From the IMG/VR virus record IMGVR_UViG_3300005714_000005, positions 41,751 through 105,750 of that record: 64,000 bases of DNA; one strand, 5' to 3'. Numbering within the stretch: position 1 is the stretch's first letter; each line of letters opens with the position of its first letter. The translations under genes were made by a program, and so were the position numbers. Of the stretch, positions 9,318-30,334 are shown piece by piece. The DNA comes from a virus. Its lineage: Duplodnaviria; Caudoviricetes. The notes beneath the pieces were generated by a model, which saw only the letters and a program-made list of their open reading frames with translations, searched no databases and had not been told where the DNA came from.

Positions 9318-12300
9318 TTGAAAATGTTTAGACCTATTTATTTTAAAGAAAATGATTGTAAACTAATCCTAATGAAGAATAGACATGAGGAGCTAATTGA
9401 GATTAATCTTGATGTCAATGAGGTTGAAAAAGTTACCTTTAACGTAGAAGAACCTGCTACAATGATTATCAACGTGCCAATGTATATTAATCGTTTCATG
9501 GGTTCAACAGACCAAAAAATTAAAAACCCTGTGTTTGATTTAATCAAAGGGAAAATGCAACTTGTATTAGAAATCAATAATGACAAGTATAAATTTTTTG
9601 TTGACTCAATCAAAGAAAATGAGAAAAAGGAAGGTTCAGTAAAAACCATAACTTGTCGTGAGTGGCAACAAACTCTAAGCAAGATTAATTGCAACATGAA
9701 AGAGGGAGTTATTACAAGACAACTTTATAGAGGAACTAATCAACTTGAAGTTGGGGAAGGTATGTTGGATTTATTTGTTAATAGTTGCAAAGGTTGGAGT
9801 GTTGGTCATGTAGACCAAAAAGCTCAACAAGAATTAACAATGACTGCATCTTCAGAAAAGGTAATTCTTTATGAAAATTTAACTATTGACGAAGTTAAGG
9901 TCAATACAACAGACGAACCAAATAATTGGTTATTCAATCGTGACATATCTATCAACATTGGTGATAAACCTTTAAATATGACAATCAGTTGGGATACTAC
10001 TGTTTATGATACAAACGGAAAAGTTTACATCAATGCAACAAATGAACACAATTTCTCTAACCTACCTTATGCAGTTAAAAATATTAAAGCAGAGTATATT
10101 GTTACACCTCGCTATCCTTACGGTATTAAGTATACTATAACCTATATCAACGATACAACAGAAGAATTTAGTTTTGCATTTATCAACTGTAAAGGGTTGA
10201 AACTTGTAGCCAAGACAGTTAATGTTGTATATGAATTAGGAGATTTTGTTGAGAATTGGGTAACTAAATATCGTAGCTTTCAAGCTCAAACAACTTCATG
10301 GCTAACAATGTTATCTCAAATTGAAGAAATGTTTGATTGTATTATCACATTCGATTCTTATAATCAAATTATCAATGCTTATGACAAATCAACCTTTGGG
10401 AAAGAAACAGGTTTATATTTATCATATGATAATGCCTTAAAGGAAATTACAAAGGAAAAGAAAATAGAAGATATTGTTACACGCTTGGTTGTAGAAAGCA
10501 ATAATACTTCTATTGCAAGCGTCAACCCTTTGGGTACAGACTATATTGAGTCATTCAAATATTTCCAAAATGCAGGTATTATGTCTAATGAATTAACTTA
10601 TGCTATGGAGCAATATGATAAGCTATTAGCATTAAAAGACAAAGAATTTGATACTATTAAGATAGACTTATATGCTAAAAATCAACAGATTACATTGGTA
10701 ACAGGTCGATTAACTTCTTTAGAAAATAAGCTCACAGCAGAAAATGCTATTTTGAGTTCATATATCAAATTCAAAAATGATGCACCTGAGAATGAGAAAG
10801 ACGCTTGGGCTAAGAAACAAGCTGAACAACAAGCAATCGTTGCTGATTTGGAACTTCAAATCGCACTAGCTAAAAAAGAGTTAGAGAAATTAAATAAAGA
10901 AGCAGATGCTTTACAAAAATCATTAACTCAAATTGGGATTGATATTAAAAAGGAAAATGCGGTATTCAATGGAGAGAAGTTATTCTCTGAAGCATTATTG
11001 CTAGAATTATCAGACTATATCATAGAGTCAACTATATCTGATGAGGTGTATTTAACTTCAACCGCTTTATATAATCATGCGAAAAAGACATTAGATGATA
11101 TGCAATCGGTAGTAGTCGATTTCTCAATAGCAGATGCAAATGTGGATTTCCTAAATAGATTACGCACCCCAAATGGATTTGGTGATTTCATCTTCTTGGG
11201 AGCAAAAGTTGATATTGAGGATAGAAGTGGAGAATTGGTTGGTACAGATGGTAGAGTTATTCTTTATGGATTTGACTATAATCCTAAACTCAATAGAATT
11301 ACCAACTTGCAATTCACCAACAACAAAGAAAAACCAGTATCGGCATTAAAGGCAATTGGAAATATTCGACAAGCAGTAAATGCTACCAAATCATTAACAG
11401 ATTTCTATAAATCTACTTGGGAGCAAACAAGAGATCAAGTCATAGACGTTGGGAATATTATCAACAATGGTTTAGACTTGGCAGCTCAAAAGATACGCTC
11501 GCAGACTTCTAAAAATATTATTGACATGACAGAAGCAGGTATCTTCCTAATTGATGCTAAAGACACTAAAAATCAATTGGGTATGATTAATGATTTAATT
11601 TGCATGACCGATGACAAATGGAAAACAAGTCGTATCGCTATTTCACCTGAAGGAATTATAGCAGACCAATTAATTGGTAGAGTTATCTTAGGTCAAGAAT
11701 TGTATATCTCTAATGGAGATTTTGGATTTCTTGTAAGAGAAAATGGATTAACAATTAGAGATAAAGCAGGCTCAGACAAAATCTTCTTAGGTTTAAACAA
11801 TGGTGAGCCAACCTTTAAATTAGGAATGAATAAGCAACAAGACCACCTAATGTGGGAAAATGGTGAGTTATCTATTCGTGCTAAGAAAATATCTATCGGT
11901 GCAGATGATGTAGTCACTAGCACTACGCTCAGTATCGAAGTAGGGAAAATTCAGACTCAAATTAAGGATACTGAAAATTCATTGCAAAGTAGTATTACTC
12001 AAACTGCGAGTGATATTAGAACTGAAATTAAAGATACGAAAGATGGCTTAGAGTCAAGTATTAATCAGACTGCAAGTTCAATTCGTACAGAACTCAAAGA
12101 TACGAAAAATGACCTAGAGAGTTCAATCACTCAAACTGCTAAGGATATTAGATTGGAAGTGTCTGACGTTAAATCAGGATTGGAAAGTAGCATTAGTCAA
12201 ACCGCTAGTGATATTCGATTGGAAGTTAGCACAACTGATAGTAACTTACGTTCATTAATCAGTCAAACCAAATCAGATATTGAATTATCAGTATCTAACG

Positions 12301-13439
12301 AAGTTAAAGATTTACGTGCTTCAATCAAAGTCAATGCAGATAACATTACATCTACGGTTGAAAACACCAAAAGAAGTGGTATCGAATTATTACCGCAAGG
12401 ATTTAGGAGAAATTCTTCTAGTGGATACTTTAGTTCATACAATACACACCATGTTAATGAGTGGGGATTGTACACTACTGGTAGGGAGTGGGTAGGTACT
12501 GATTTTATAGCAATAGACCCGTTGTTGCCACTTTCATATTATTTTTATGTTCAAAATACTGGTGGGAGAAATCCATTAACCTATGTTGGAATCGAGCAAC
12601 ACGACTGGAAAAAACAACCGATAGGTGCAAATGCGAGTACAATTTATTTCATTCATGAAAAATTCACAGGTTATAAAACTGTGTCGGGTGTACTAGAAGC
12701 AGGAGCGTTAGATAGTAACACTAAATTCATCAAATTTAGATTTTTAACTAACTGGGATGATAGCGGAATTGCTGAAAGTTATATTCACGAAATGTCGTTA
12801 AAGCAACTGGCAAACATAAACTCATCAACACAGATTGCACAAATGGATGATAGAATTACTTCTACTGTCACTTCTATTAGTACGGTGGACGGGAAAGTTA
12901 ATTCTGCTCAATCACAAATTGACCAACAAGCTACACAAATAGCATCGAAAGTGGATGTTAATGGTGTTAAGTCAATTATCCAACAAAATCCTGAGTCGGT
13001 ACGAATTGGATTCAATGGCATATCTAACTATTTTGATTTAAATGCCCAAAGATTACGAGTTGGTCATGTCGATGGTTCATACACAGAAATTGGGCAACAT
13101 GGTATCATGTACTTTGCACATGGGAGTGGGAATAGATACCACAATCTAATGAAGCAAGGTTGGTTAGGACAAATTCAAGGAACTCAATGGAGCAGAACAA
13201 TTTCCCTACCCCCTGAATTTAGAGGTAAAGCATTTTCAGTTATCGTAAGTGTTACCGAGGTAAATGCTATCAATACACATGATGTTATCAAACATTTTAA
13301 AGTTACTGTGCCTCATGATACTGTTGACTATGCCAATGGTACATTTATTATCAATATGTCGGCAGTTGCCTATTGGGTGCCAGGTCAACAACTTGCTACT
13401 GCAATTCAAAGTGACATATCTTGGATAGCAATAGCTTAA
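9318..13439 (+). CDS. Tail hub/spike (Tal-like) protein
   Basis: 1373 aa after the tape measure gene; prophage-tail-type N-terminus, AISPEGIIADQLIG motif, gp58-like coiled-coil repeats, C-terminal beta domain. Confidence 0.8.
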   Translation: MKMFRPIYFKENDCKLILMKNRHEELIEINLDVNEVEKVTFNVEEPATMIINVPMYINRFMGSTDQKIKNPVFDLIKGKMQLVLEINNDKYKFFVDSIKENEKKEGSVKTITCREWQQTLSKINCNMKEGVITRQLYRGTNQLEVGEGMLDLFVNSCKGWSVGHVDQKAQQELTMTASSEKVILYENLTIDEVKVNTTDEPNNWLFNRDISINIGDKPLNMTISWDTTVYDTNGKVYINATNEHNFSNLPYAVKNIKAEYIVTPRYPYGIKYTITYINDTTEEFSFAFINCKGLKLVAKTVNVVYELGDFVENWVTKYRSFQAQTTSWLTMLSQIEEMFDCIITFDSYNQIINAYDKSTFGKETGLYLSYDNALKEITKEKKIEDIVTRLVVESNNTSIASVNPLGTDYIESFKYFQNAGIMSNELTYAMEQYDKLLALKDKEFDTIKIDLYAKNQQITLVTGRLTSLENKLTAENAILSSYIKFKNDAPENEKDAWAKKQAEQQAIVADLELQIALAKKELEKLNKEADALQKSLTQIGIDIKKENAVFNGEKLFSEALLLELSDYIIESTISDEVYLTSTALYNHAKKTLDDMQSVVVDFSIADANVDFLNRLRTPNGFGDFIFLGAKVDIEDRSGELVGTDGRVILYGFDYNPKLNRITNLQFTNNKEKPVSALKAIGNIRQAVNATKSLTDFYKSTWEQTRDQVIDVGNIINNGLDLAAQKIRSQTSKNIIDMTEAGIFLIDAKDTKNQLGMINDLICMTDDKWKTSRIAISPEGIIADQLIGRVILGQELYISNGDFGFLVRENGLTIRDKAGSDKIFLGLNNGEPTFKLGMNKQQDHLMWENGELSIRAKKISIGADDVVTSTTLSIEVGKIQTQIKDTENSLQSSITQTASDIRTEIKDTKDGLESSINQTASSIRTELKDTKNDLESSITQTAKDIRLEVSDVKSGLESSISQTASDIRLEVSTTDSNLRSLISQTKSDIELSVSNEVKDLRASIKVNADNITSTVENTKRSGIELLPQGFRRNSSSGYFSSYNTHHVNEWGLYTTGREWVGTDFIAIDPLLPLSYYFYVQNTGGRNPLTYVGIEQHDWKKQPIGANASTIYFIHEKFTGYKTVSGVLEAGALDSNTKFIKFRFLTNWDDSGIAESYIHEMSLKQLANINSSTQIAQMDDRITSTVTSISTVDGKVNSAQSQIDQQATQIASKVDVNGVKSIIQQNPESVRIGFNGISNYFDLNAQRLRVGHVDGSYTEIGQHGIMYFAHGSGNRYHNLMKQGWLGQIQGTQWSRTISLPPEFRGKAFSVIVSVTEVNAINTHDVIKHFKVTVPHDTVDYANGTFIINMSAVAYWVPGQQLATAIQSDISWIAIA
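11950..12360 (+). repeat. About six tandem 22-aa (66-nt) repeats in the Tal-like protein
   Basis: QTASDIRTEIKDTKDGLESSIN and variants. Confidence 0.85.
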
Positions 13440-13901: not shown

Positions 13902-14696
13902 ATGGCACAATTTAGACACACGAAGTTTTCTTTTGATGGGATAAGTTGTGACGAGTTTGGTTTAGTAATGGTGAGTGTTGATAACGATGAGCCAACGAAA
14001 CAAATTGGTGTTAAACGCTCACCCTCACTAACCGAGGCTAGTTATGGTAGATTCTCGTTTGATGGAATTGCTACTGAAACGCCTACCTTTACTTTTACTT
14101 TGTTAAAATGTTCAGATAACTATGACCCACAACCATTCACACAAGATGAACTTTTTAAAATCAATAGTTGGTTATTCAAGACCAAAGAATTTAGACCTTT
14201 TATTTCACAAGAAAATCCTGGTATCGTTTACTACGGAATGTTCGTAGGTGGTAACCTATGGCAAAATGAAGCTAATGAGGGATATTTAGAAGTGGAATTT
14301 CAATTAAATACCTCTCATGCCTATGGTGTCATTCAAAAAATTATTAAGTATGTAGATGGCACAAATGAATTTTCAATTAATTGTAAAGATAACGTAAATG
14401 GCTACTCTTTGCCTGATTTTGAATTTCATTTGCAAGATACCGAAACAGAGTTCAAAGTTCAGAATTTAACAACTGGGCAAGAGATGAAATATTTTGACTT
14501 AGATGAAAAAAGCCGAGAGGGGTATCTTTATAATGACGGTTGCCAACATACGGTTAGCTTAATTGACTCAACTGTAAATATGCGACCAAAATGTAATAAG
14601 AATTATCTAAGATTAGAATATGGAAATAACGATATAAAAATTATAGGTAAAGGTACTTTCATTATTTACGTACAACCTAAAGTAGCTTTACAATAA
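13902..14696 (+). CDS. Distal tail protein (Dit-like)
   Basis: FSFDGISCDEFGL N-terminus and YLRLEYGNNDIKI C-terminus typical of Dit proteins. Confidence 0.75.
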   Translation: MAQFRHTKFSFDGISCDEFGLVMVSVDNDEPTKQIGVKRSPSLTEASYGRFSFDGIATETPTFTFTLLKCSDNYDPQPFTQDELFKINSWLFKTKEFRPFISQENPGIVYYGMFVGGNLWQNEANEGYLEVEFQLNTSHAYGVIQKIIKYVDGTNEFSINCKDNVNGYSLPDFEFHLQDTETEFKVQNLTTGQEMKYFDLDEKSREGYLYNDGCQHTVSLIDSTVNMRPKCNKNYLRLEYGNNDIKIIGKGTFIIYVQPKVALQ

Positions 14697-14728: not shown

Positions 14729-16474
14729 ATGAGCTATCTTGATGAGGAAAGTATTCTTTTTAAATTAAATACAGATAGAGATGGAAACCCAACATCGACA
14801 ATCACTACCGAACAACAACAAGTAGATACGTTAAAGAACTTAATCCAACTTGTCCAACTTCCTGACCATCTTCAAAATATTGAAGTAACAGATTCAAAAG
14901 GGCAACGAATGATACAAGTTAGAAATACTGATGCAGTATTAAAAGATAATGAAATTCGTGTTAGTTTCAATCAAGGTTTAATTTTCTTCTCACCTAATCG
15001 CAAGGGAGAAACATTTACTATCAAGTATTATGCACGAGGAATAGAGTTAATTTCAACCAATCGTTTATTCTCTCCTGAGCAACCAGGGATTCCTTTTGGA
15101 GATGTTATTCAACAAGTGCATCAATCTTTAGATACTCTAAAAGGTGTCATTGATGATGCTAGAGATGAATTAAACATTATTGAAGAAACTCATGGTGGTC
15201 TTATTCCTGCATATAATCACCTAAAAGAAGCAACTGCTGAGGGTGAGAGAGTAAATGCAACTGTGAAAGCCACAAATGAAACTGCAAAGCAAACAAATAC
15301 AACTCTTATTGGCAATATTAGCACAGGTAGGCAAGTAAGTCAAGACCTTGCAAGCAAGAGCAATGTAGGCGGTCAAATAATTAAAAATTTACAAGACTCT
15401 ACTGCAACCGCTAATCAAACAAATTCTACCTTAAATGCAACAATTCAAACTGGAAATGGAGTACATACAACTTTAACCAATGATATTAAGACTGCTAGAG
15501 AAGTTGATACAAAATTAGTAGCCGATACAAATGAGGCTAAGGCAGTTAATAAAAAGTTAGAAAGCAATACAGACGAAATTGTTCGTTGGAAAGATTATAG
15601 CAACGATACAATCAATGTCAACTATCCTCGCTTAGACATTGAGGTGCAATCACTTAATGCTAAGGTTAAAGTATTAGAAGATGACTCTATTGAAAGCACA
15701 CCTTACAATAATCAAATGGTTGATGCAATCTTTCCAAATTTACATTTAAATGTAGACAAGTTAGATAAGAAAGTAAATGATACAAAACAAGCAGTTGACA
15801 TGAATGTGATTGAAGTTAATAAATTAAAACAATCTGTTGATACGCTTAACAAGCACAATCATAATAGCACATATCTAGGTATAAATGCAACTGCACAAAA
15901 TAGCTTAAAATTGGGTGGGGCTTCTGCTTCTGTCGCACCAACTCCTAATACAATTGTTAAACGTGATGCACAAGGTCGTATTAATGTTGCTGTAGCTTCT
16001 GCTAATGTTTCTTTCTTAGACGAAACAGGTGAAATTGAAAGCGAGAATATTTCAGATGCTATCAAAGAGATTTGGGGTAAGACAAAGCAAGGCGTTGAAA
16101 CTCGACAAAGAACAAATGAAAAATTATCAGAGTGTGGAAATTGGACTCCTACAAGTTGTGACAACTCTGCAATTTCTATTTTAAATAGCAAAGGTAATTA
16201 TACAAGAATCCAAAATCAAATCAATCTAGTTGGTGAGATTACTTTTTCTATTGAAGAAGAGATTGACACTTTTGAAATTGAAGGATTGCCTTTTGCTTTA
16301 GGTGAGTCAGATTGTGATTATGTTGGAACTTGTGTAGATATTGATAATTCAATTATATCACCTATTTACATTTTATCAAAAGATAATGAGAAAATCACTA
16401 TCGACCTAAAACATGACGACATTCAGAAATCAGAATTGATTACTCTACGCTTCACATTAACTTATTCTATTTAA
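14729..16474 (+). CDS. Baseplate/tail fibre protein
   Basis: 581 aa, coiled coil, PNTIVKRDAQG motif, C-terminal GNWTP...GNYTRI...GLPF fibre-tip domain. Confidence 0.65.
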   Translation: MSYLDEESILFKLNTDRDGNPTSTITTEQQQVDTLKNLIQLVQLPDHLQNIEVTDSKGQRMIQVRNTDAVLKDNEIRVSFNQGLIFFSPNRKGETFTIKYYARGIELISTNRLFSPEQPGIPFGDVIQQVHQSLDTLKGVIDDARDELNIIEETHGGLIPAYNHLKEATAEGERVNATVKATNETAKQTNTTLIGNISTGRQVSQDLASKSNVGGQIIKNLQDSTATANQTNSTLNATIQTGNGVHTTLTNDIKTAREVDTKLVADTNEAKAVNKKLESNTDEIVRWKDYSNDTINVNYPRLDIEVQSLNAKVKVLEDDSIESTPYNNQMVDAIFPNLHLNVDKLDKKVNDTKQAVDMNVIEVNKLKQSVDTLNKHNHNSTYLGINATAQNSLKLGGASASVAPTPNTIVKRDAQGRINVAVASANVSFLDETGEIESENISDAIKEIWGKTKQGVETRQRTNEKLSECGNWTPTSCDNSAISILNSKGNYTRIQNQINLVGEITFSIEEEIDTFEIEGLPFALGESDCDYVGTCVDIDNSIISPIYILSKDNEKITIDLKHDDIQKSELITLRFTLTYSI

Positions 16475-16847: not shown

Positions 16848-19439
16848 ATGGCACAATATCAAGGAAGAATTGCTAAGTTGGCAGATAAGGATAATAATAC
16901 GGTTGTTCCTATCACCAATGCAAGAGCAGTTGAGGTAAGTAAAAATCGCAACCTTGAGGCAATTGTTGATAAAGTTGACGATATGGAAAATGTTGCTCAA
17001 CGAGTTTTCAATAATTCAATTACGCCAATAATCACGCCAATTCAAACTTCTGTACAACGACTAGACGGTATTGAAGCTAAAGCTAATGCCAATACTACAA
17101 AAGTCAACCAACTTGAACAAAAGCAAACTTCTGATAAAAATGAACTTGCCAACACGTTAAATGGTGTAAAGCAAAATGTCCAAACTATTGAGGGTAATGT
17201 TACCAATACTACTAATACCGTAACTCAACATACTCAACAGATTGCAGATTTAGAATATAGCGTTGGTGAAGTTTTGCCTAAAGCAGAGGAAGCGGTTGCT
17301 AAAGTTGATGGAATTTTAGGTGAGAAATATATTGATTGTATTGCACAAGGGAAGATGACACAAGTTGGTAAGCAATCAGATGGCAAAGTAGTTGCTATTG
17401 ATAATTCATTTGCAAAGAGCGCCATGTTGAAAGGTCAGACTTTGGTGAATTTAATAACTTCACAAACACCAATTAGAACAGGTTCGAACTATAAAGATTA
17501 CTCAATCGGGTATATAAAAGCTAATCAAAAATATTTAGCAATTTTTAATGCGGAATCATCTTCTAGTTTGTTAAGATGTGGGATTTTGAAAACAACAGGA
17601 GAATGGAATAGCGAAAACCTAATTGTAACAACAGGATTAAATAAGGTTGTATTAACAGCTACAACAGATGTGCAAGTAGGTTTTAGGGTTAGATATGGCG
17701 ATTCAGAAGTATCCCACACGTTAAATGTTTCGAATGTTAGACTTATCGAATATCAAGACGGAATGGAAAATTGGGATATTCCTTATTTTGAGGGAATGGC
17801 TAGTGTTAAAAATCTTGTTGTGACAAGTACAGGAAAGAACTTAATATCGTACTTACCGCCAACCGTAGCTAGTGGAATGACTTTAACACAAACCGATGTT
17901 AAGTCAGAATTAGCTATTAGTGGCACTTGCACCGCTAGTAATTATGATTATTATTTTGCACGTTCTACTCCTGGCGCTGTGATTGATACTGAAGTTACAA
18001 GACTATTAGTTAATGCACCTGTTGGGACAAAATTTGTCTTGTCAAACAATTTGGGGAAAGAATGTTATTTTGGAGTAAGTAGAAATGGTTCATCTACAAT
18101 AACATGGATAGCAGGTAAAGTTGGCTATGAAGTAAAAGCTGGGGATATTAATGTTCAAGCATTTGTTCGTTTTAAGCAAGGTGACACCTACAGTGGAGAA
18201 AGATTAAAAATCCAATTGGAGATAAGTCCATCTGTTACAACTTACGAACCATACAAATCACACATCACATCTTCAACAGAGGAAATTATCCTACGTTCGT
18301 TACCAAATGGTGTATGTGATACATTAAACTTGGTTACAGGTGAATATGTGCAACGTATTGGTGAGGTTGTGTTAAGTGGTGGTGAAAATTGGACTCCTTC
18401 AAGTAGCGTATCTAATACAGAGCTTCTTCGATTTGATTTAAACATGGGGATTTTGAAGGGCTATGGGAAAGTTTTGTTGTGCGATAAGTTTCCGTATCTC
18501 TATATACATAATCTTGTCGGAGGAAGCTCGACCGTCAATCAAGAATGTGTGTCAAACCACAGTACAAACGAAAGTCTAAACCTCGTTATTAGAAAAGATA
18601 GACTAGCACCACAAAATATCGATGGTTTTAGGACATGGCTAAAAGCCAACCCAGTAACAATCCAATACGAACTAGCAACACCTGTCACTAAAAAAGTTAA
18701 ATTATCAAATTCGCCATTTATGTTCAAAGATGGGCATATTATTTTATCTAGTGCTAATGATTTATTACCTACTTTTACTTATACTGCAACTGTTGGTATC
18801 AAAGGTCAAGTAGAAACATTAAGCAATGTAGTAAGCAATATCAAGATAGAAGATGGTGTCGTAGCTCCAAGTCCTAATACCCTCGCTAGACGCAACAACG
18901 AGGGAAACATCTATGCAAAAGATAAATTTATTTTTGAAGATGGGAAAGCCATAAAAGTAAATGGCGAACGTATTCAATGGGGAAATACAGCAGATTGGCA
19001 CAATATTCACGATAGCCAATCGCTACCTGTTGAAAAAGGCGTTTGGACACCTAGATTTGAGGGTGTGCTAGGTGGAGTGTGTAATACTTATGACATTCAA
19101 GAGGGAATTTATTGTCGCATAGACAAGTTGGTGCATATTCAACTGAAGTTAAGTGTTAATGATTATAAAGTATGTCAAGGTGTCTTTTGTGTTAGAGGAT
19201 TGCCATTTACACCAGGTAATGCACACACCGCACTTTCGATTGGAGTAATTAACAATTTAAAAACAACACTAGACAATGCTTCTGTAAATGCCTATATAGA
19301 CGCCTCTACCGATAAGATAATACTTGGATTTAATGAAATAAGAGATGGGTCAATGCACTATCAATTTGAAAATCCACAAGTTGCCAATCCCGCAAAACCT
19401 ATACTTTTAATAATTGCAGGAACATATATGATTGACTAA
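16848..19439 (+). CDS. Tail fibre/receptor-binding protein
   Basis: 863 aa; coiled coil, CBM-like insertions (YFEG, YEPYK, LRSLPNGVCD), C-terminal GVWTP...GLPF domain. Confidence 0.75.
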   Translation: MAQYQGRIAKLADKDNNTVVPITNARAVEVSKNRNLEAIVDKVDDMENVAQRVFNNSITPIITPIQTSVQRLDGIEAKANANTTKVNQLEQKQTSDKNELANTLNGVKQNVQTIEGNVTNTTNTVTQHTQQIADLEYSVGEVLPKAEEAVAKVDGILGEKYIDCIAQGKMTQVGKQSDGKVVAIDNSFAKSAMLKGQTLVNLITSQTPIRTGSNYKDYSIGYIKANQKYLAIFNAESSSSLLRCGILKTTGEWNSENLIVTTGLNKVVLTATTDVQVGFRVRYGDSEVSHTLNVSNVRLIEYQDGMENWDIPYFEGMASVKNLVVTSTGKNLISYLPPTVASGMTLTQTDVKSELAISGTCTASNYDYYFARSTPGAVIDTEVTRLLVNAPVGTKFVLSNNLGKECYFGVSRNGSSTITWIAGKVGYEVKAGDINVQAFVRFKQGDTYSGERLKIQLEISPSVTTYEPYKSHITSSTEEIILRSLPNGVCDTLNLVTGEYVQRIGEVVLSGGENWTPSSSVSNTELLRFDLNMGILKGYGKVLLCDKFPYLYIHNLVGGSSTVNQECVSNHSTNESLNLVIRKDRLAPQNIDGFRTWLKANPVTIQYELATPVTKKVKLSNSPFMFKDGHIILSSANDLLPTFTYTATVGIKGQVETLSNVVSNIKIEDGVVAPSPNTLARRNNEGNIYAKDKFIFEDGKAIKVNGERIQWGNTADWHNIHDSQSLPVEKGVWTPRFEGVLGGVCNTYDIQEGIYCRIDKLVHIQLKLSVNDYKVCQGVFCVRGLPFTPGNAHTALSIGVINNLKTTLDNASVNAYIDASTDKIILGFNEIRDGSMHYQFENPQVANPAKPILLIIAGTYMID

Positions 19440-20100: not shown

Positions 20101-20709
20101 ATGGATATTGTAACTTACGCCTTATGTAAGAAAATGGCAAGTGGTAAAGGTGAAAAAGGGGATAAGGGAGATAAAGGAGATAGAGGTGAACAAGGTCTGC
20201 CTGGTAGAGATGGTGCTGATGGTGTCACTCCCAATTTACAAGTTGGTACTGTTACAACTCTACCTAGTGGTCAAAATGCTACGGTAACACAAAGTGGTAC
20301 AAAGGAAGACCCAATTTTCAATTTCTCTATTCCTCGTGGAGATAAGGGAATTTATGTTGGTGCTAAAGATACTGCACCCCCAACAGTTGATATTGTAATT
20401 GACCATTCTGACATGGGGCTATATTCTGATGAATTAGTAAATACACCTATTGTGGGCAATACCTTAACTTTAACTACTCGTAAAAATCAAACAACCACTA
20501 TGCAAAATAACACAACCATTGTATTGCCTAATGTAAATTCATTCACAGAGATTCATCTATTCTTTAGCACAACAAGTGAATTAACATTACAATTACCTGT
20601 CGATGTTAAATGGCAAACTCAACCGACTATCGAAGCTAATAAAGTGTATGAATTTATTTTCACATATGCAACCACTTGGCTTGGAGGGGCGGTATGCTAC
20701 AATGACTAA
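20101..20709 (+). CDS. Collagen-like fibre/adaptor protein
   Basis: Gly-X-Y run GEKGDKGDKGDRGEQGLPGRDGADG followed by a TPNLQVGTVTTLP...FSIPRG module. Confidence 0.8.
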   Translation: MDIVTYALCKKMASGKGEKGDKGDKGDRGEQGLPGRDGADGVTPNLQVGTVTTLPSGQNATVTQSGTKEDPIFNFSIPRGDKGIYVGAKDTAPPTVDIVIDHSDMGLYSDELVNTPIVGNTLTLTTRKNQTTTMQNNTTIVLPNVNSFTEIHLFFSTTSELTLQLPVDVKWQTQPTIEANKVYEFIFTYATTWLGGAVCYND

Positions 20710-21361
20710 GAAATTATTAATGAATAATTATTCTGAAAATGGATTAATGCCTGTCATGGATGGTTTGATTTGTTGGTTAGATGGTAGAGATGGTGAATTT
20801 GGTGATACCGTATGGGTAGATAGAAGTGGAAATGGGAATGACGCAACAGTGACAAACTGTGTGTGGACTGGGAAAGCTCTGAAAACAACTTCAGATTTAA
20901 GTGAATTTTTAGTTAGTAAAGAGATGATTAGTGGCGACAACAATCCCTATACATTGGAGATATATTTTTCTCGTTATGCAACAGATAGACCAAACGTAGC
21001 AGAGAATGTCATAATGGCTAATTCAGTAAAAGAATGGGGTTACTCAACCTCTCTTTATATTCGAGGGAATAAGTTGTTTTATGACGTAGGAAAACAAACT
21101 TTGGTTGATAACTCCGAGTTTAACAAGCCTTATCAAGTAGCTATTAGCAAAGTCCACCTCACAAGCAGGAAATCATTTGTTAATGGCAACTTTATTCAAG
21201 AGCGAGATGGATTCGTTGTAAAAGGGATTTCATTTTTGGGAAATTGGGACTCAACAAAAGCAAAATGCGATTATTACTCAATTAGATTATACAATCGTGC
21301 CTTGACAGAAGAAGAAATCCAACAAAATTACCTATACGAACAATCAATTGAAAGAGGGTGA
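20702..21361 (+). CDS. LamG/concanavalin-A-like jelly-roll protein (start revised to ATG 20702)
   Basis: WVDRSGNGNDAT and IRLYNRALTEEEIQQNY LamG hallmarks; GGAGG RBS upstream of 20702. Confidence 0.75.
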   Translation: MTKKLLMNNYSENGLMPVMDGLICWLDGRDGEFGDTVWVDRSGNGNDATVTNCVWTGKALKTTSDLSEFLVSKEMISGDNNPYTLEIYFSRYATDRPNVAENVIMANSVKEWGYSTSLYIRGNKLFYDVGKQTLVDNSEFNKPYQVAISKVHLTSRKSFVNGNFIQERDGFVVKGISFLGNWDSTKAKCDYYSIRLYNRALTEEEIQQNYLYEQSIERG

Positions 21362-21916: not shown

Positions 21917-21958
21917 TTCAATAGACATACCTTAAAGCAAGAAAGGAGGAATTTCTAT

Positions 21959-23905
21959 ATGTCTATTTATGTAAGAGATGAACATGGCGTGTTACAAGCT
22001 CTGAAAATCCCTGCATACAAGGGTGAAAAAGGGGAGGCAGGGGTAACACCTAATCTTACGATTGGGAATGTTACAACCCTACCTTATGACCAACAAGCCA
22101 CTGTTGTAATCAGAGGGGATAAGGAAAATCCTATCATTGACTTTGGTATTCCTAAAGGTCAAGATGGAACTGGAGTTGGGGGAAATAATGTCTTTGATAC
22201 AGACATTCAGTTCGTTCCTGACCCAATTAAGCAAATTGCAGAAACACCTAATGGAACTCCAATTGGTTTCATTATGGATAGATACGCTCGTGTTGAAGCC
22301 TACAAATCAATTAAGAGAATAGGTGTCCAAGTGCGAGGATTTGATGGGCAAAATACTATTGCTTCAAATGTTAAAGCATTTGCAATTAACGCAGATACTC
22401 ATGAGGTTATGGAGTTATTACATGACCAAACAGGAACAACCCCTATTGAATTAATTGATGGTAAAACATTTGCCATGATTAATGTAAACAAAACTTATAA
22501 TGTCAATACTGTCTTTGCTTTCGGTATTTCTCGTTCAGGGAGCTATGGAAATGGTAGTGGTTTAGCAGTACAAGAAGGAACGAATAAAAACTTAATGGCT
22601 TCTGCCAATGCCCCAACAGTAGGGACAAGATTAGCAGAATGGACAAGTTCAAATTGGACTATGGGTGTATATTTTGAATTTAATTCAACAATGGCAGGTA
22701 GCTTAACGCAAGAGGTTGCTAATGAGGTTGCTAAAATCAACAACTCAACCGAAGAATATGCACTATTCAGTACAGCTAGGGGTGACTTTGATAACTCAAC
22801 TGCTTTTCGTATTCCTGCTATTGTAGTTACGCCTAAAGGTACGATTATTGCTGCATCTGACATCAGACGTAAAACTGCATTTGACCAATCGTTAATTGAC
22901 AATGGTATCTCACGTTCAACAGACGGAGGTAAAACATGGACTCAAAAAGTTGTTATGAGAAATAGTGGAGTTAGTGACTGGTCTCGTGCAATGGACTCTA
23001 CTATGCTATCTGCTAAGAATGGTGATGTTTATATCTTGTGTGGTGCTTGGGATAGTAATCGTGGCAATTGGGAAACATCAACTTCAACACCTGACCCTGA
23101 TTGGAAAGTACGATTAGCAAAGTCTACTGATGATGGAGTAACATGGACTGAAACTGATATTTCAAGAACGACTTTAAACCAACCACAAGATACAGTATCT
23201 TGGTTAGGTGGAGTTGGTACAGGTATTGAAATGTCAGACGGTACATTAGTATTCCCAATCCAAATATGTAGACGAGACGGAAATGCAAACTATGTAACTG
23301 CGGGTATTATCTACTCTAAAGACAATGGGGCAACATGGACTATGAGTGCAAGTTTTACACCTCGTAATAACCGCATCTCAGAAAACATGGTGGCAGAAGT
23401 TGAAAATGGCATGTTGATATTAACTGGTCGGAATGAGTCAAGTGGAGTTCGTCCTGCTTACTACACAAGAGATTTAGGTGCTACATGGCAAACTCATAGC
23501 TTTATGCACAATTTAATCCATACCAATGCTCGTCCATGTCAAGGTTCATTCATTACGTTTGATACTTTAGGTGGTCGTAGAGTTGGATTAGTATCAACAC
23601 CGACTTCGGGTGGAGGAACTCGTAGAGATTTAGGTGTTACCCTAATTGACTTCAATGGTCAAAAGACTAAATTGCTAAAAGTATTCTTCCCAACACCATA
23701 TACAGGTGGGGGTTATTCTTCACTTGCAACAGGATTCCGTAATGGGAAACGAATCTTAGTGGTAGCCTATGAAGCACAAGGTCAAATTCATTATCAAGAT
23801 TTAACGTATTTATTAACCGACATTGAAATGCTTACTAATGGCAATGTAAATTTAACAATAGTAACAAATGACGAAATTGACACAATTATTGGTGCATTAA
23901 ATTAG
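21959..23905 (+). CDS. Exo-alpha-sialidase (GH33, clostridial NanH-like) fused to a collagen/fibre N-terminus
   Basis: FRIP motif, four Asp-boxes (STDGGKTW, STDDGVTW, SKDNGATW, TRDLGATW), WLGGVG, SENM, CQGSF, GGGYS. Confidence 0.92.
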   Translation: MSIYVRDEHGVLQALKIPAYKGEKGEAGVTPNLTIGNVTTLPYDQQATVVIRGDKENPIIDFGIPKGQDGTGVGGNNVFDTDIQFVPDPIKQIAETPNGTPIGFIMDRYARVEAYKSIKRIGVQVRGFDGQNTIASNVKAFAINADTHEVMELLHDQTGTTPIELIDGKTFAMINVNKTYNVNTVFAFGISRSGSYGNGSGLAVQEGTNKNLMASANAPTVGTRLAEWTSSNWTMGVYFEFNSTMAGSLTQEVANEVAKINNSTEEYALFSTARGDFDNSTAFRIPAIVVTPKGTIIAASDIRRKTAFDQSLIDNGISRSTDGGKTWTQKVVMRNSGVSDWSRAMDSTMLSAKNGDVYILCGAWDSNRGNWETSTSTPDPDWKVRLAKSTDDGVTWTETDISRTTLNQPQDTVSWLGGVGTGIEMSDGTLVFPIQICRRDGNANYVTAGIIYSKDNGATWTMSASFTPRNNRISENMVAEVENGMLILTGRNESSGVRPAYYTRDLGATWQTHSFMHNLIHTNARPCQGSFITFDTLGGRRVGLVSTPTSGGGTRRDLGVTLIDFNGQKTKLLKVFFPTPYTGGGYSSLATGFRNGKRILVVAYEAQGQIHYQDLTYLLTDIEMLTNGNVNLTIVTNDEIDTIIGALN

Positions 23906-23918
23906 GAGGACGATATTC

Positions 23919-25073
23919 ATGAATAACAAATTTATCAACGGAGAAAAATTACAATATGCTTTCACTCAATTATGGGCTAAAATGAAAAACACATTTGCCC
24001 AAAAGAATGGGGAAAATACATTCACTAAGAAAAATACTTTTGACGAAGCTGTTATGATTAAACGTGAATCTATGTATATTCATAGTCCAATTAACAACAA
24101 GCCTGCCACATTAACAGGAATGCAAAAACTTGCAGGGTATCGTGGTTATACTTCACACTCTAACGGAAATAACGGTTATGTAAAATCTGTTAAAGTTCGA
24201 GTTAAAGATGACTCTACTGTAGGACATACACTTCGTTATATTGATTTATGGGCGGTAGAGAAAAAAGATAATTTGGCACAAGACGTTATTGTTGGTAAAA
24301 TGTATGATTCTTCAGTAACTTGGCTAGCTGTAAAGGAAGAAGAAGGATTTGGTAAATACGTTGAAATCTTCGTTAATCGCAAATTCGAGAATGAAACATA
24401 TTTCTTAGTTGAGCATAGCAATAGTGTTACGTATACAAAACCAACTGACGAAGATGATAATGACATTGTTTATGCACGAAAAGGTACAGTTCCTGAAGTG
24501 GGCACTTCAGGTCTTACATCAGAAAGTAAGCGTTATTTATTACAATATGGTTTAGTTGGAGAAAGCATGAACATTGCTCGTGAGTTAGAAAAAATCTCTA
24601 ATGGTACTGGGAAACTTGTTTCAAGTGTCAATACTATTAAACCAAACGATAAAGGTGATGTTACTGTTGCACCAAAAGACATTCCTGGTTTATTAAGCGA
24701 CAATGGTAAAATCCACCCTACTCTTGTTCCTGATGTTGCAATTACAAAAGTTACGGTGGTCGATACAGAGAAAGAAGCTATGGAACTTAGCTCAAGTATC
24801 GGGGATATTGTAATCCGCAATGACTTGAATGGTGAATCTTATATCTGTAAGAATCCACAAGGAGGCACATTCGCAGAACGTTTCATTCGTGTAGGTAGTG
24901 CAAGTGATGCAGTTAAAACAATCAACAATCAAGCAGCCAGTGCAGGTAACGTTGATTTAGGATTAAAAGCAACTACAACTCAACTTGAATTAACTGTAAA
25001 TAGCCAAACTGTCGCTACTTTACCTATTATCACAGACCAAGAAGTAAACAACATTATCAACGGTCTTAACTAA
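23919..25073 (+). CDS. Fibre/appendage protein
   Basis: NTFTKKNTF linker, beta-sandwich module, VSSVN...GDVTV fibre motifs. Confidence 0.7.
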   Translation: MNNKFINGEKLQYAFTQLWAKMKNTFAQKNGENTFTKKNTFDEAVMIKRESMYIHSPINNKPATLTGMQKLAGYRGYTSHSNGNNGYVKSVKVRVKDDSTVGHTLRYIDLWAVEKKDNLAQDVIVGKMYDSSVTWLAVKEEEGFGKYVEIFVNRKFENETYFLVEHSNSVTYTKPTDEDDNDIVYARKGTVPEVGTSGLTSESKRYLLQYGLVGESMNIARELEKISNGTGKLVSSVNTIKPNDKGDVTVAPKDIPGLLSDNGKIHPTLVPDVAITKVTVVDTEKEAMELSSSIGDIVIRNDLNGESYICKNPQGGTFAERFIRVGSASDAVKTINNQAASAGNVDLGLKATTTQLELTVNSQTVATLPIITDQEVNNIINGLN

Positions 25074-25119: not shown

Positions 25120-26745
25120 ATGTCTATCGTAGATAAGTCACATCTTCAAGATGTGGCTTTAGGTATTTGGAATAAAATCCAAATGAAATTAAATGCTTAT
25201 GTCCATAAGACAAAGGAGAACGTAGTCGTAGGTAAGACTGTGCTATTCGATGGGTACATATCAGGTAATGTCCTAGCTACTTTAAATAATCCAAAAGCAA
25301 CAGGCTACATTAAAACTGACTCAGCTTTCTTTGTCTGCGAACAATTATTAGTGTCTGCCAACCAAAAGGTTGGTCAGATTACTATTGGAATTGTCGACAG
25401 TAAACAAGTTGGTGATATTGTCACAGGAGTAAACATTGGAGTGGTTAGACGCTCCGATAAAAAAGTTTTAGAATATCTAATGCGAAATGGCGTTGGTGTT
25501 GCTCATAAGAATACGATAAGCGATTTAGGTTGCGATAGAGCAATTACAATCAACGTTGATAAATCATGGTCAGATGACGTTTACCTAATGGTTGGTGCTA
25601 ATGGGGCATTATGGGGAGATCGTGATAACAACTATGGCGGAGATGCTCTTGGTGGTCTAACATTACCTGCTGTGGGTAGTACAATTCAACTTAACCGAAA
25701 TGGTAACTATGTTGGTAAAGCTATTATTCATGGTGATGGAATTGCATTGCGAGATTTAGCAAACTCTAGTGTCAATGGAGTTACAAAAGATGAGTTTAAT
25801 CAATTCAAGGGTGAAAATCAACAAGCTCATCAAACAATGACAAATAGTATCAATAGTGCTAATAGCAATATCACATCACAAGGTCAACGTATTGGTAGCT
25901 TGGAGAGTGGTACTGCTAAATTAAATGCTCGCAATAGATTTACTGCTCAAAATACTTTTATGGAAAGAAATCCTATTGTTGAGAAATATGCTTCAATCAA
26001 AGATATTTTTACAGCAGATGGAGTAGACTCATTCTTAGCGGGTGGGCTATACTGTTGTAATCCACAGGCGGGTATTACAGATTATAACGCCCATATTTCT
26101 GCAATAGTTGTTCCTATTAAAGATTCACAACCAGGAGATACAGTTGAGGCTTCATACTTCACAGTTAATGCTACTACTAGACAATTAACAAGTGATATTC
26201 TTGAAGCTAAAACACATACAGTTTTAGATGTGCAGTATAAAGGTGAATATTGTATTGCTCTTAATGTAGACAGAACTTTTAACTATCCTGTTTCTTTCGG
26301 AATCCGAGTTATGGATAAAGTTTTAGTAGGTAGACGAATTGGTATGTTGAAACAAGATTTACCAAACCAAGTCAACAACAATGCTTGGAGTTATTATATC
26401 AAGCCTACAAATGGACAATACATAGGAAATTATAATGCAAAGTTTACAGTTCCTTATATGATTGCTCGAAGAATTAGCTCAGAACTTATTACCAAATATG
26501 ACATCAACATCATGAATAATCCTACAGGTGAGATTAAATTCTTAGCTTATGATGCAGGTGAAGTTACAGAAATCAATGGGCGTACTTGGTTGAGATGTGA
26601 TGGGCAATCAGTGCCAACTTCGGAGTATAATGAATTATGTAAAGCTATTCAACCTGTATCAGAAGATGGTTCAGAAGTATCGGTAGATTTCAAATTACCA
26701 AGTAATAATTCACCTGTTGGGTATACTTACATTTGTGCTAAATAA
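25120..26745 (+). CDS. Fibre protein with C-terminal phage tail-collar domain
   Basis: PTGEIKF...WLRCDGQSV...YNELCKAI...FKLP...YICAK collar signature; two internal beta-sandwich modules. Confidence 0.8.
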   Translation: MSIVDKSHLQDVALGIWNKIQMKLNAYVHKTKENVVVGKTVLFDGYISGNVLATLNNPKATGYIKTDSAFFVCEQLLVSANQKVGQITIGIVDSKQVGDIVTGVNIGVVRRSDKKVLEYLMRNGVGVAHKNTISDLGCDRAITINVDKSWSDDVYLMVGANGALWGDRDNNYGGDALGGLTLPAVGSTIQLNRNGNYVGKAIIHGDGIALRDLANSSVNGVTKDEFNQFKGENQQAHQTMTNSINSANSNITSQGQRIGSLESGTAKLNARNRFTAQNTFMERNPIVEKYASIKDIFTADGVDSFLAGGLYCCNPQAGITDYNAHISAIVVPIKDSQPGDTVEASYFTVNATTRQLTSDILEAKTHTVLDVQYKGEYCIALNVDRTFNYPVSFGIRVMDKVLVGRRIGMLKQDLPNQVNNNAWSYYIKPTNGQYIGNYNAKFTVPYMIARRISSELITKYDINIMNNPTGEIKFLAYDAGEVTEINGRTWLRCDGQSVPTSEYNELCKAIQPVSEDGSEVSVDFKLPSNNSPVGYTYICAK

Positions 26746-26771: not shown

Positions 26772-27410
26772 ATGAAACTTACTCAAGAACAATATGAACT
26801 TTGCACATTTCTGAATGATTGCGTTTATAATGAATTGGCTTATCCACCTACTATGAATATGACTAATCGTATTGTTAAAGGAAGTGGTTTGAGGGTTGAG
26901 ATTTTTGACTTCCCTCAGACCACTTTTGTTATATTCTGTGGTACGAATAGAGGTAGTTGGAGAGATTGGCTAACCAATTTCAAAGTTGGATTTGGTTTTG
27001 GATTAGTACCTAACCAACATAGACAAGCATTAGCAATCGTTCGTGATGAATTATGCAAAGCTCAATTTAAAGGCAAAGATTTAATTGTCGCAGGACACTC
27101 ATTGGGTTCAGGACTGATGGAGTATAGTATTGCCAACTTAGGTAATACAGAATACGACAACTATATAGGAATTGGGTACAATGGTTGTGGAGTTAAACAT
27201 TTGGGTGGATATGCAAAAGAGGGGAAAATTCTTAATATCGTCACAACTCGTGATATTCTAAACGGTATTACTAGCAAATTGCCAGGAAAGAAATATATGA
27301 AACACTATGGGGAAATCCAATATGTTAAAGATAATAGCACTTGGAATCCTATCAAGTCACACTCTAACTTTTCAGTTATGATGGACTATAAAATTAACGA
27401 AGGAGAATGA
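26772..27410 (+). CDS. Class-3 lipase-like alpha/beta hydrolase
   Basis: VAGHSLG nucleophile elbow, IFCGT (FRGT-like) motif, DW..N, candidate Asp (RDIL) and His (SHS). Confidence 0.8.
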   Translation: MKLTQEQYELCTFLNDCVYNELAYPPTMNMTNRIVKGSGLRVEIFDFPQTTFVIFCGTNRGSWRDWLTNFKVGFGFGLVPNQHRQALAIVRDELCKAQFKGKDLIVAGHSLGSGLMEYSIANLGNTEYDNYIGIGYNGCGVKHLGGYAKEGKILNIVTTRDILNGITSKLPGKKYMKHYGEIQYVKDNSTWNPIKSHSNFSVMMDYKINEGE

Positions 27411-27413
27411 AAT

Positions 27414-28001
27414 ATGAAAGAAGTATGGAAAGATATTTACTATACAGATGAAGTAACGGAAGAAATAATTGATTTTCGTGGATATTATCAAATTAGTAAT
27501 TTGGGAAGAGTTAAAAGTTTGGCAAGAGTTCACTTTAGAAAAAATGGTGTAAAATTGTCAATACGAGAGAAAGTAATTAGCCCAGGCGATAATGGTCATG
27601 GCTACCTATTTGTCACTCTCTATAATGGCGAAAGCAAAAAGAGATTCTATGTTCATAGGTTGGTTGGGCAAATGTTTCTCCAAAAAGAAGAGGGTAAAAT
27701 CTATATAGACCATATTGATACCAATAGAACTAATAATTGTGTTGAGAATTTAAGATGGTGTACACAAAAAGAAAATGCAAACAATAGCCTCACGTTAAAA
27801 CGCAATAGCGACTCAAAAGACAAAACTAGAGTTATTGCCATAAACGAAAAAGACTGCAAAGTTATAATGTTAAAGAGTATATCTGACGGAAAGAAAATCG
27901 GCTTTGACAAGGCAGCTATTTGGCGTTGTTGCAACGGAAAACAAAAGGAACATTTGGGTTACAAATTTCAATATGTTGAGAAAAGAGGAATGATAGCATG
28001 A
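27414..28001 (+). CDS. Free-standing NUMOD4-HNH homing endonuclease
   Basis: YQISNLGRVKS, VHRLV, IDHIDTNRTNNCVENLRWCT. Confidence 0.9.
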   Translation: MKEVWKDIYYTDEVTEEIIDFRGYYQISNLGRVKSLARVHFRKNGVKLSIREKVISPGDNGHGYLFVTLYNGESKKRFYVHRLVGQMFLQKEEGKIYIDHIDTNRTNNCVENLRWCTQKENANNSLTLKRNSDSKDKTRVIAINEKDCKVIMLKSISDGKKIGFDKAAIWRCCNGKQKEHLGYKFQYVEKRGMIA

Positions 28002-28732
28002 CTTACATATTTAAACAAGATTTAGTACCAAGTAACAAATATTCAATCAAAGCTCCTTATTCTATGATACCACAATATATCACAATCCACAACACTTCAA
28101 ACTCTGCACCCGCACAAAACGAAATTAACTACATGAAAAACAATAATAACCAAGTTTCTTATCACGTATGTATAGATGAGAAATACGTTATCCAAGCAAT
28201 CCCTTTTAATCGTAATGCATGGCACGCAGGAGATGGTGCTTATGGTAGTGGAAATCGCAAATCTATCGGCATTGAAATTGCACGTTCGACTGGCGACATT
28301 AATCTATTTAAACAGGCAGAAGCTAACTGTGCTAAATATGTAGCTACTCTATTAAAACAATATGGTTGGGGAATTGACCGAGTTAAACGTCATAAAGACT
28401 GGTCTGGCAAATACTGTCCTCACAAAACGATGGATTTAGGTTGGGATAGATTTTTAAATATGATTAAAGCAGAATTGAATGCTTTAAACAAACTTACTCA
28501 ACCAACACCTAGCAAACCAACACAAGACACTTCATTCAAAGTTAAGGTTATTGCTAAAGAATTAAATGTGCGTAAATCTGCTTCATTTGATAGTGCAGTA
28601 GTGACTACTGTTAAGAAAGGTGAAGTGTACACTATTGTTGAGGTTAAGAATGGATTAGGTTTATTGAAATCTTACAAAGACAAACGTGACGGTTGGATTT
28701 CAATACACTCTGCCTATGTGCAAAAAGTTTAA
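27998..28732 (+). CDS. Endolysin: N-acetylmuramoyl-L-alanine amidase (Amidase_2, CwlA/XlyA-like) with SH3 domain
   Basis: ITIHNT, AWHAGDG, SIGIEI, HKDWSGKYCP; C-terminal LNVRKSAS...GWI. Confidence 0.92.
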   Translation: MTYIFKQDLVPSNKYSIKAPYSMIPQYITIHNTSNSAPAQNEINYMKNNNNQVSYHVCIDEKYVIQAIPFNRNAWHAGDGAYGSGNRKSIGIEIARSTGDINLFKQAEANCAKYVATLLKQYGWGIDRVKRHKDWSGKYCPHKTMDLGWDRFLNMIKAELNALNKLTQPTPSKPTQDTSFKVKVIAKELNVRKSASFDSAVVTTVKKGEVYTIVEVKNGLGLLKSYKDKRDGWISIHSAYVQKV

Positions 28733-30287: not shown

Positions 30288-30334
30288 CAAAAGGGATAGA
30301 TACTTTAATTAGTGTCTATCCCTTACCTTTTTTG
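30288..30334. terminator. Terminator at the convergence of the late and early arms
   Basis: AAGGGATAGATAC/GTGTCTATCCCTT flanked by A and T tracts. Confidence 0.85.

Follow-up and report, generated by a model that had tools for sequence, protein, structure and literature searches.

A GH33 propeller on a fibre anchor

The 64,000-nucleotide window analysed here makes up the 3′ 64 kb of an IMG/VR virus record of 105,750 bases (IMGVR_UViG_3300005714_000005), and the gene under study, on its plus strand, joins a fibre-type N-terminal extension to a sialidase of glycoside hydrolase family 33 (GH33); we refer to its product as the sialidase fibre. Computed comparisons give the protein a GH33 domain identity, an intact active site, a fusion to a fibre module, a position among tail genes and recurrent counterparts of its domain in other phages. 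We consider it likely to be a late-expressed homotrimeric tail-fibre (side-fibre) protein that displays a NanH-type exo-sialidase on an SPbeta/Tsamsa-like siphophage. An earlier sequence-only reading of the window, made from the letters and the open reading frames (ORFs), had given the coordinates, strand and length of the gene exactly (21959–23905, plus strand, 648 aa). Its ribosome-binding site was graded strong, and its product divides into four parts:

21945–21949, plus strand: Shine–Dalgarno sequence GGAGG, 9 nt 5′ of the ATG, read from the sequence
21959–23905, plus strand: fibre–sialidase fusion gene, 648 aa, stop codon included, from the ORF list
21959–22183, plus strand: residues 1–75, anchor, made up of a conserved peptide at the N-terminus, a pair of G-X-Y triplets and one beta module; presumed attachment or shaft unit
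22184–22738, plus strand: residues 76–260, orphan region in the middle, with a probable beta-sandwich fold that may bind glycans or act as a spacer
22739–23818, plus strand: residues 261–620, GH33 exo-alpha-sialidase six-bladed beta-propeller, from sequence and structure matches
23819–23902, plus strand: residues 621–648, 28-residue C-terminal tail ending in ...LTIVTNDEIDTIIGALN, from C-termini compared by eye

The propeller was assigned by sequence and structure. The Pfam scan returned BNR_3 (E = 3.9e-32), BNR_2 (over residues 286–589) and BNR (E = 8e-8), and a phmmer search against all PDB sequences returned Clostridium perfringens NanH (8ub5; E = 8e-78 across residues 261–617) and the Salmonella Typhimurium sialidase (2sil/3sil; E = 6e-55). 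In an AlphaFold2 model built from a 47-row alignment, residues 265–625 had a predicted local distance difference test (pLDDT) score of about 90, and the best Foldseek match was again NanH 8ub5 (template-modelling (TM) score 0.91 normalised to NanH, root-mean-square deviation 1.9 Å, 41% identity, E = 2e-36); the remaining matches listed were all GH33 enzymes or fusion constructs that include such an enzyme. No endosialidase (GH58) family such as End_beta_propel was matched in the Pfam scan at E ≤ 0.01, where the matches were to BNR/GH33-type families only.

All 12 residues of the active site and of the pocket for N-acetylneuraminic acid (Neu5Ac) are present (R284, R303, D309, M345, D346, W371, W382, E475, R491, R555, Y586 and E605). 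Counted on the 1dil/2sil alignment, R284, R303, D309, E475 and R491 align with Arg37, Arg56, Asp62, Glu231 and Arg246 of the Salmonella enzyme, while R555, Y586 and E605 land on its TRSD, GYS and YEA motifs, which we take to hold Arg309, Tyr342 and Glu361. M345, D346, W371 and W382 presumably correspond to the Met99/Asp100/Trp121/Trp128 N-acetyl pocket and are likewise conserved in the residue table and alignment. The arginine triad (R284/R491/R555; Salmonella Arg37, Arg246 and Arg309) is invariant in 46 of 46 GH33 rows, and the tyrosine nucleophile (Y586), its partner glutamate (E475) and the acid/base aspartate (D309) are the equivalents of Tyr342, Glu231 and Asp62; the sole residue that differs (D to N) between the PDB sequences 8ub5 and 8um0 aligns with D309. 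The individual motifs are FRIP (R284), AFDQ (D309), SENM (E475), TGR (R491), TRRD (R555) and GGGYS (Y586), accompanied by four Asp-boxes (SRSTDGGKTW, 318–327; KSTDDGVTW, 388–396; YSKDNGATW, 452–460; YTRDLGATW, 502–510). The sequence-only reading had claimed a complete GH33 catalytic set, a likeness to NanH and membership of GH33 rather than GH58; every motif that it quoted was found, NanH is the best structural match and the Pfam result agrees with the choice of family. We infer from these residues that the domain is catalytically competent as an exo-sialidase.

The beta module of the first 75 residues (TPNLxxGxVTTL...FGIPKGxDG) ties the protein to phage fibres. These residues are 47.8% identical over 67 aa (E = 2e-15) to residues 35–101 of the product of ORF 20101, a short distance upstream, and they match PHROG minor-tail families, including phrog_4120 (minor tail protein). 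In an exhaustive HMMER search, 1,939 proteins matched residues 1–265 at E ≤ 0.001, nearly all of them in residues ~20–75 only and often repeatedly within one protein; because the module is so widespread and so often repeated, it is probably a common fibre shaft unit. This ~55-residue TPN...G.VTTL...F.IP.G module, for which no Pfam-A family was matched, reaches 25 tandem copies in giant proteins (P0162, 2,398 aa). Seventeen further proteins of 82–1,198 aa open at residue 1 with the same MxIYxRxxxGxLxPLxIPAxKG...FGIPKGxDG block and then diverge fully, one of them finishing in a tail-collar domain, a pattern that reads as a fixed end for attachment to which different distal heads can be joined. 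A hydrophobic h-region is lacking at the N-terminus (MSIYVRDEHGVLQALKIPAYKGEKGEAG), unlike in the cellular homologues P0007–P0014, which all start with MKK and a hydrophobic run. Both the lack of a signal peptide and the module in common with ORF 20101 had been claimed from the letters and hold up; of the further description of the N-terminus as collagen-like, the two G-X-Y triplets remain, but the true collagen run (nine triplets) sits in ORF 20101.

A three-copy prediction of residues 1–100 scored 0.62 against 0.00 for the best of three controls, with at least 79% contact agreement between runs and a partner pLDDT of at least 63. Of solved homo-pairs, 20 of 30 attain the mark used for this score, as does 1 of 23 single chains; the calibration is rough here (own alignment, three copies), and the prediction covers residues 1–100 only. 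The model thus supports, but does not show, a homotrimer of these residues. The middle region has nearly no homologues beyond the cluster of its full-length relative P0002; an Atlas structure look-up led, as a lead only, to beta-sandwich proteins (TM 0.55–0.61) and unnamed viral clusters, and the region weakly resembles residues 326–440 of ORF 25120 (E = 0.017).

Genomic setting and recurrence in other phages

The sialidase gene lies between tape measure, Dit and fibre genes upstream and an endolysin gene downstream, in the same orientation:

2892–9269, plus strand: tape measure, 2,125 aa (PHROG match)
9318–13439, plus strand: minor tail protein (PHROG match)
13902–14696, plus strand: Dit (PHROG match)
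14729–16474, plus strand: 581-aa protein of the upstream tail module
16848–19439, plus strand: 863-aa tail fibre (PHROG match)
20101–20709, plus strand: ORF 20101, 202 aa, a collagen-like run of nine G-X-Y triplets and the same beta module as the sialidase fibre
23919–25073, plus strand: next gene, encoding a 384-aa fibre-like protein, no family match
25120–26745, plus strand: 541-aa fibre-like protein with a C-terminal Pfam Collar match (E = 4e-4, below the curated cut-off)
26772–27410, plus strand: 212-aa lipase-fold protein, serine motif GHSLG, flanked by fibre genes on one side and the HNH and endolysin genes on the other
27414–28001, plus strand: HNH homing-endonuclease-like gene (phrog_59, E = 6e-36)
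27998–28732, plus strand: endolysin, Amidase_2 and SH3_3 (Pfam), closing the structural/lysis block
30291–30324, plus strand: strong intrinsic terminator, 14-bp stem and T-run, at the end of the plus-strand late unit

Gaps of 42 and 13 nt separate the sialidase gene from its same-strand neighbours, and two small proteins are encoded on the plus strand between ORF 20101 and it. Its flanks carry no promoter or terminator signal of their own above background; the terminator at 30291–30324 is the only strong one, none comparable lying beside the sialidase gene, and GC skew places the strand switch at ~30 kb. The gene is part of the late tail operon, in the tail-fibre cluster, and the earlier claim that the enzyme is joined to a phage fibre module proved correct. 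An opposite-strand ORF inside the gene (22543–22902) was rejected as unsupported, GC skew indicating that the 1–30 kb block is read on the plus strand.

Tail and endolysin proteins of the window are similar, at 24–50% identity, to proteins of Bacillota phages of the c-st, Tsamsa-like and SPbeta-like kinds, with the endolysin ~50% identical to those of Tsamsa-like and SPbeta-like Bacillus phages. These similarities suggest a large SPbeta/Tsamsa-like siphophage with a low-GC Bacillota host. Twenty kilobases of the window had no megablast match among 50,697 phage records. The minor tail protein had no match in five Clostridia genomes, and among 399 scored Clostridia-class genomes it had matches in four, at 24–27% identity only.

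The GH33 domain recurs on many fibre scaffolds. The full-length relative P0002 is 83% identical overall, with the anchor at 65%, the middle region at 83% and the propeller at 88%, and many proteins of 730–1,100 aa carry the same domain at 35–47% identity. Altogether, 27 phage-type proteins join it to at least six kinds of fibre N-terminus, including the same anchor (P0016), BppU_N (P0023) and Phage_tail_fib (P0019); the phage origin of most of the relatives P0002–P0029 was judged from their fibre-type N-termini and Pfam domains. The uniqueness implied by the sequence-only reading was thus overstated, since the same domain sits on many fibre scaffolds in uncultivated phages. All 12 active-site residues are kept in 27 of 27 phage-type sequences, a pattern that speaks for selection on catalysis and not just on the fold.

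A single-protein scan of IMG/VR gave no match and an alignment-based scan gave two loci only, both in siphophages (L003 and L004), where the order of genes is tape measure, Dit, Tal, a GH33 protein of 1,005 or 786 aa and endolysin. The GH33 protein accordingly occupies the receptor-binding slot, and in L003 this large protein carries the propeller at its distal, C-terminal end. A stretch of the L004 holin region (12849–13247 of UViG_3300045988_133755) has 83.5% DNA identity to Terrisporobacter phage TPELB_ph1, which hints at a host of L004 in the Peptostreptococcaceae. Searched with tblastn (E ≤ 1e-5), the protein matched four records representing three distinct phages. Homologues of the catalytic domain were found in only two other distinct phages among the 50,697 records, Fels-1 and one faecal virome contig, neither of them fused to a fibre. 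The human-faecal record MT835944 has a 543-aa GH33 ORF, around which the PHROGs were uninformative.

Among cellular enzymes, the nearest were secreted NanH-like proteins of Clostridium, Romboutsia and Faecalimicrobium (43–45% identity). In a quick, unrooted GH33 tree, phage sequences fell into at least three lineages, and the window's pair (P0001/P0002) had a long branch adjacent to the NanH clade of clostridia. This clade of secreted enzymes grouped (support 87) with P0001/P0002, P0003–P0006 and P0015, not with other cellular clades. A tree of this kind allows no claim on the direction of transfer between phages and bacteria, and with small clostridial NanH beside or among phage-fibre lineages, the question arises whether the domain passed from phages to bacteria or the reverse.

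Role, target and precedents

The reading of the protein as a structural fibre is well supported by what the sequence encodes. Residues 1–75 would fix it to the tail tip as an anchor or shaft module, residues 76–260 would serve as a spacer or possible binding beta-sandwich, and the propeller would be shown at the distal end. There the putative virion enzyme, predicted to be trimeric and active, would bind terminal Neu5Ac-type sialic acids on the glycoconjugates that it meets and then hydrolyse them, so that the head would combine receptor binding with receptor destruction.

Several points weigh against this reading. The phage is uncultivated and its record is estimated to be 68% complete, and the proximal half of the protein (residues 1–264) has pLDDT below 50 in the AlphaFold2 model. 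Several other fibre proteins are encoded, so the sialidase fibre could be an accessory rather than the main receptor-binding protein. On the host side, no close prophage relative was found among the 399 scored Clostridia genomes; NeuB (PF03102) matched weakly (27–43 bits) in the four Clostridia genomes with the closest cellular GH33, which are not established hosts, and we know of no sialylated receptor on gut Clostridia.

As to the target, we regard an envelope glycan of the bacterium, sialylated or carrying a nonulosonic acid, as about an even bet, sialoglycans from the animal host in the surroundings of the bacteria, mucin included, as a tentative candidate and some other target as unlikely. 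Because a GH33 protein fills the receptor-binding slot of L003 and L004, a bacterial-surface target is at least as strongly argued. The sequence-only reading had proposed a mucin target and the feeding of gut bacteria, neither of which has specific support, and the sequence does not separate animal sialoglycans from a sialylated bacterial surface glycan; the fuller version of that proposal, a phage ‘neuraminidase’ aimed at animal sialoglycans that moves through intestinal mucus and frees sialic acid for the microbiota, strikes us as doubtful.

Of the alternatives, a mucus-directed enzyme survives best, as a possibility that we hold only tentatively: the virion sialidase would act on animal mucin sialoglycans by bind-and-release, like influenza neuraminidase, with freed Neu5Ac as a by-product, and particles would move through or dwell in mucus and so reach mucus-embedded bacteria. 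Its catalytic domain is indeed closest to the small clostridial NanH enzymes (43–45% identity), whose natural substrates are host sialoglycans, and the Neu5Ac N-acetyl pocket (M345, D346, W371 and W382) is fully kept, but the L003 propeller is the distal domain in a receptor-binding slot and, to our knowledge, the tail-borne glycosidases with a known substrate all act on bacterial surface polymers. Other fibres of this phage could handle bacterial recognition, yet the sialidase fibre has no Ig-like or BACON-type mucus adhesin signature in the Pfam scan.

A head that only binds is improbable. The propeller would in that case be a sialic-acid lectin with little or no turnover, its catalytic residues kept for ligand binding; receptor-binding proteins need affinity rather than turnover, and inactive trans-sialidase-like lectins do exist (the T. 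cruzi Tyr342His isoform is among the structural matches). However, the known lectin-like relatives have lost one of the tyrosine nucleophile, partner glutamate and acid/base aspartate, whereas none of the three varies in the 27 phage-type sequences, which span at least three deep lineages. Still less probable is non-structural cargo (a moron) like Fels-1 nanH, that is, a soluble sialidase that lysis sets free or that a prophage expresses to benefit the bacterium, its place among tail genes incidental. The homologue in Fels-1 (36.5% identity) stands alone and neither phage with a homologue among the 50,697 records has it fused to a fibre. Here, however, the domain is covalently joined to a 260-residue extension that opens with the 75 residues of a widespread fibre module for which a trimer is predicted; the gene lies mid-operon among the late tail genes and shows neither a promoter nor a terminator signal of its own beyond background; and elsewhere this domain is found on BppU_N, Phage_tail_fib and further fibre N-termini.

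With C. perfringens NanH (8ub5, 8um0 and 9dku) the sialidase fibre shares the six-bladed propeller, and with Salmonella Typhimurium LT2/Fels-1 NanH (2sil and 3sil) the same fold at 32–34% identity; common to all are the arginine triad, the aspartate acid/base, the tyrosine/glutamate pair, the Neu5Ac pocket and four Asp-boxes. NanH enzymes are stand-alone domains of ~380 aa, and the clostridial relatives compared carry signal peptides; the sialidase fibre differs from them in its 260-residue fibre extension and 28-residue C-terminal tail and in lacking a signal peptide. The nanH gene of Fels-1 is carried as prophage cargo and does not encode a tail protein, in contrast to the sialidase fibre with its structural module inside a tail operon.

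Like the GH58 tailspikes of K1 coliphages (endoNF of K1F, and phi92), the sialidase fibre would be a tail-borne, sialic-acid-cleaving six-bladed propeller on a trimeric scaffold (the trimer being a prediction here) and is likely both receptor-binding and receptor-destroying. GH58 enzymes make internal cuts in alpha-2,8 polysialic acid and belong to a different family with a different catalytic mechanism; the sialidase fibre, unlike them, appears to be an exo-acting GH33 enzyme with a retaining tyrosine nucleophile, and its predicted host is Gram-positive. A second parallel is offered by the receptor-binding proteins of Gram-positive siphophages whose distal heads can be swapped (BppU/BppL-type baseplates, Dit–Tal–receptor-binding protein gene order). 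There too a distal domain that varies follows an N-terminal anchor that is conserved; L003 and L004 have this order of genes, and P0023 and P0019 carry the GH33 head on BppU_N and Phage_tail_fib N-termini. Known heads in these phages are lectin-like binders of cell-wall polysaccharide, whereas the head of the sialidase fibre is a complete glycoside hydrolase. For feeding on mucin, the nearest precedent is the NanS-p sialate O-acetylesterases of Stx prophages, which are phage-encoded and act on mucin sialic acids; they are esterases, not glycosidases, and are not known to be part of the tail.

A glycosidase-tipped phage fibre is already a known design, and the protein is not categorically new. 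Known phage tail enzymes cut capsules, lipopolysaccharide or polysialic acid, from which a NanH-type exo-sialidase fibre head differs, and many uncultivated phages of Gram-positive bacteria share the design. This points either to unrecognised sialylated or nonulosonic-acid receptors on gut Firmicutes or to phage particles that enzymatically edit host mucus; if the animal-glycan reading were true, a class of Bacillota phages would be direct enzymatic modifiers of the mammalian mucus layer. The family also offers signal-peptide-free sialidases, naturally trimeric by prediction, on modular scaffolds, which may serve as glycan probes.

Looser precedents are a Kuttervirus virion protein annotated as an exo-alpha-sialidase and an archaeal virus with a possible sialidase domain. 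The four records that the sialidase fibre matched with tblastn included no Kuttervirus. In BFVD, the best viral structural matches were the fibre of Passerine adenovirus 1 and the sialidase of Psittacine adenovirus 5, both eukaryotic viruses, and phage entries matched the model at 12–14% identity only. The Kuttervirus, archaeal-virus and adenovirus proteins are precedents for sialidase-fold domains on virions, known there by annotation. Literature searches aimed at phage GH33 or exo-sialidase fibres found no paper describing a NanH-type GH33 domain in a phage fibre, and in a 2023 review of gut phage proteins that interact with carbohydrates, GH33 comes up for bacteria only.

Neighbouring genes and a shared C-terminal motif

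Upstream, ORF 20603–21361 (plus strand), if started at its first ATG, overlaps the end of ORF 20101 by 107 nt; a likelier start is the internal ATG at ~20702, ~8 nt before the upstream stop. This ORF has no Pfam match, but its C-terminus (YSIRLYNRALTEEEIQQNY) resembles a LamG_3/concanavalin-type lectin motif; Pfam Laminin_G_3 is carried by two of the GH33 fibre relatives (P0020 and P0021). Downstream, the C-terminus of ORF 25120 is similar to those of P0004, P0172 and P0176. ORF 26772 had no Pfam or PDB sequence match and groups with class-3 lipase/Tle-like phospholipase domains, mostly viral (Atlas features 0.97; structure TM 0.85). As a sialate O-acetylesterase partner of the sialidase it was ruled out, its fold being class-3 lipase/Tle-like with GHSLG and not SGNH/SASA. 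The HNH gene between the fibre cluster and the endolysin is possibly a mobile insertion at the module boundary.

The last 28 residues of the sialidase fibre, for which AlphaFold2 predicts a low-confidence helix at 637–647, close with ...TNDEIDTIIGALN, and the product of the next gene, ORF 23919, ends in a similar motif (...LPIITDQEVNNIINGLN). Compared by eye, a motif of approximately [ST]-x-[DE]-[DE]-[IVF]-x-x-[IL]-[IL]-x-x-[LM], exemplified by TNDEIDTIIGALN and TDQEVNNIINGLN, lies inside the last 15 residues of otherwise unrelated fibre proteins. The shared motif could be a docking or assembly tag. Its sites are 23819–23902 and 24990–25070 in the window and the C-termini of P0003, P0005, P0006, P0015, P0175, P0226, P0236 and P0298.

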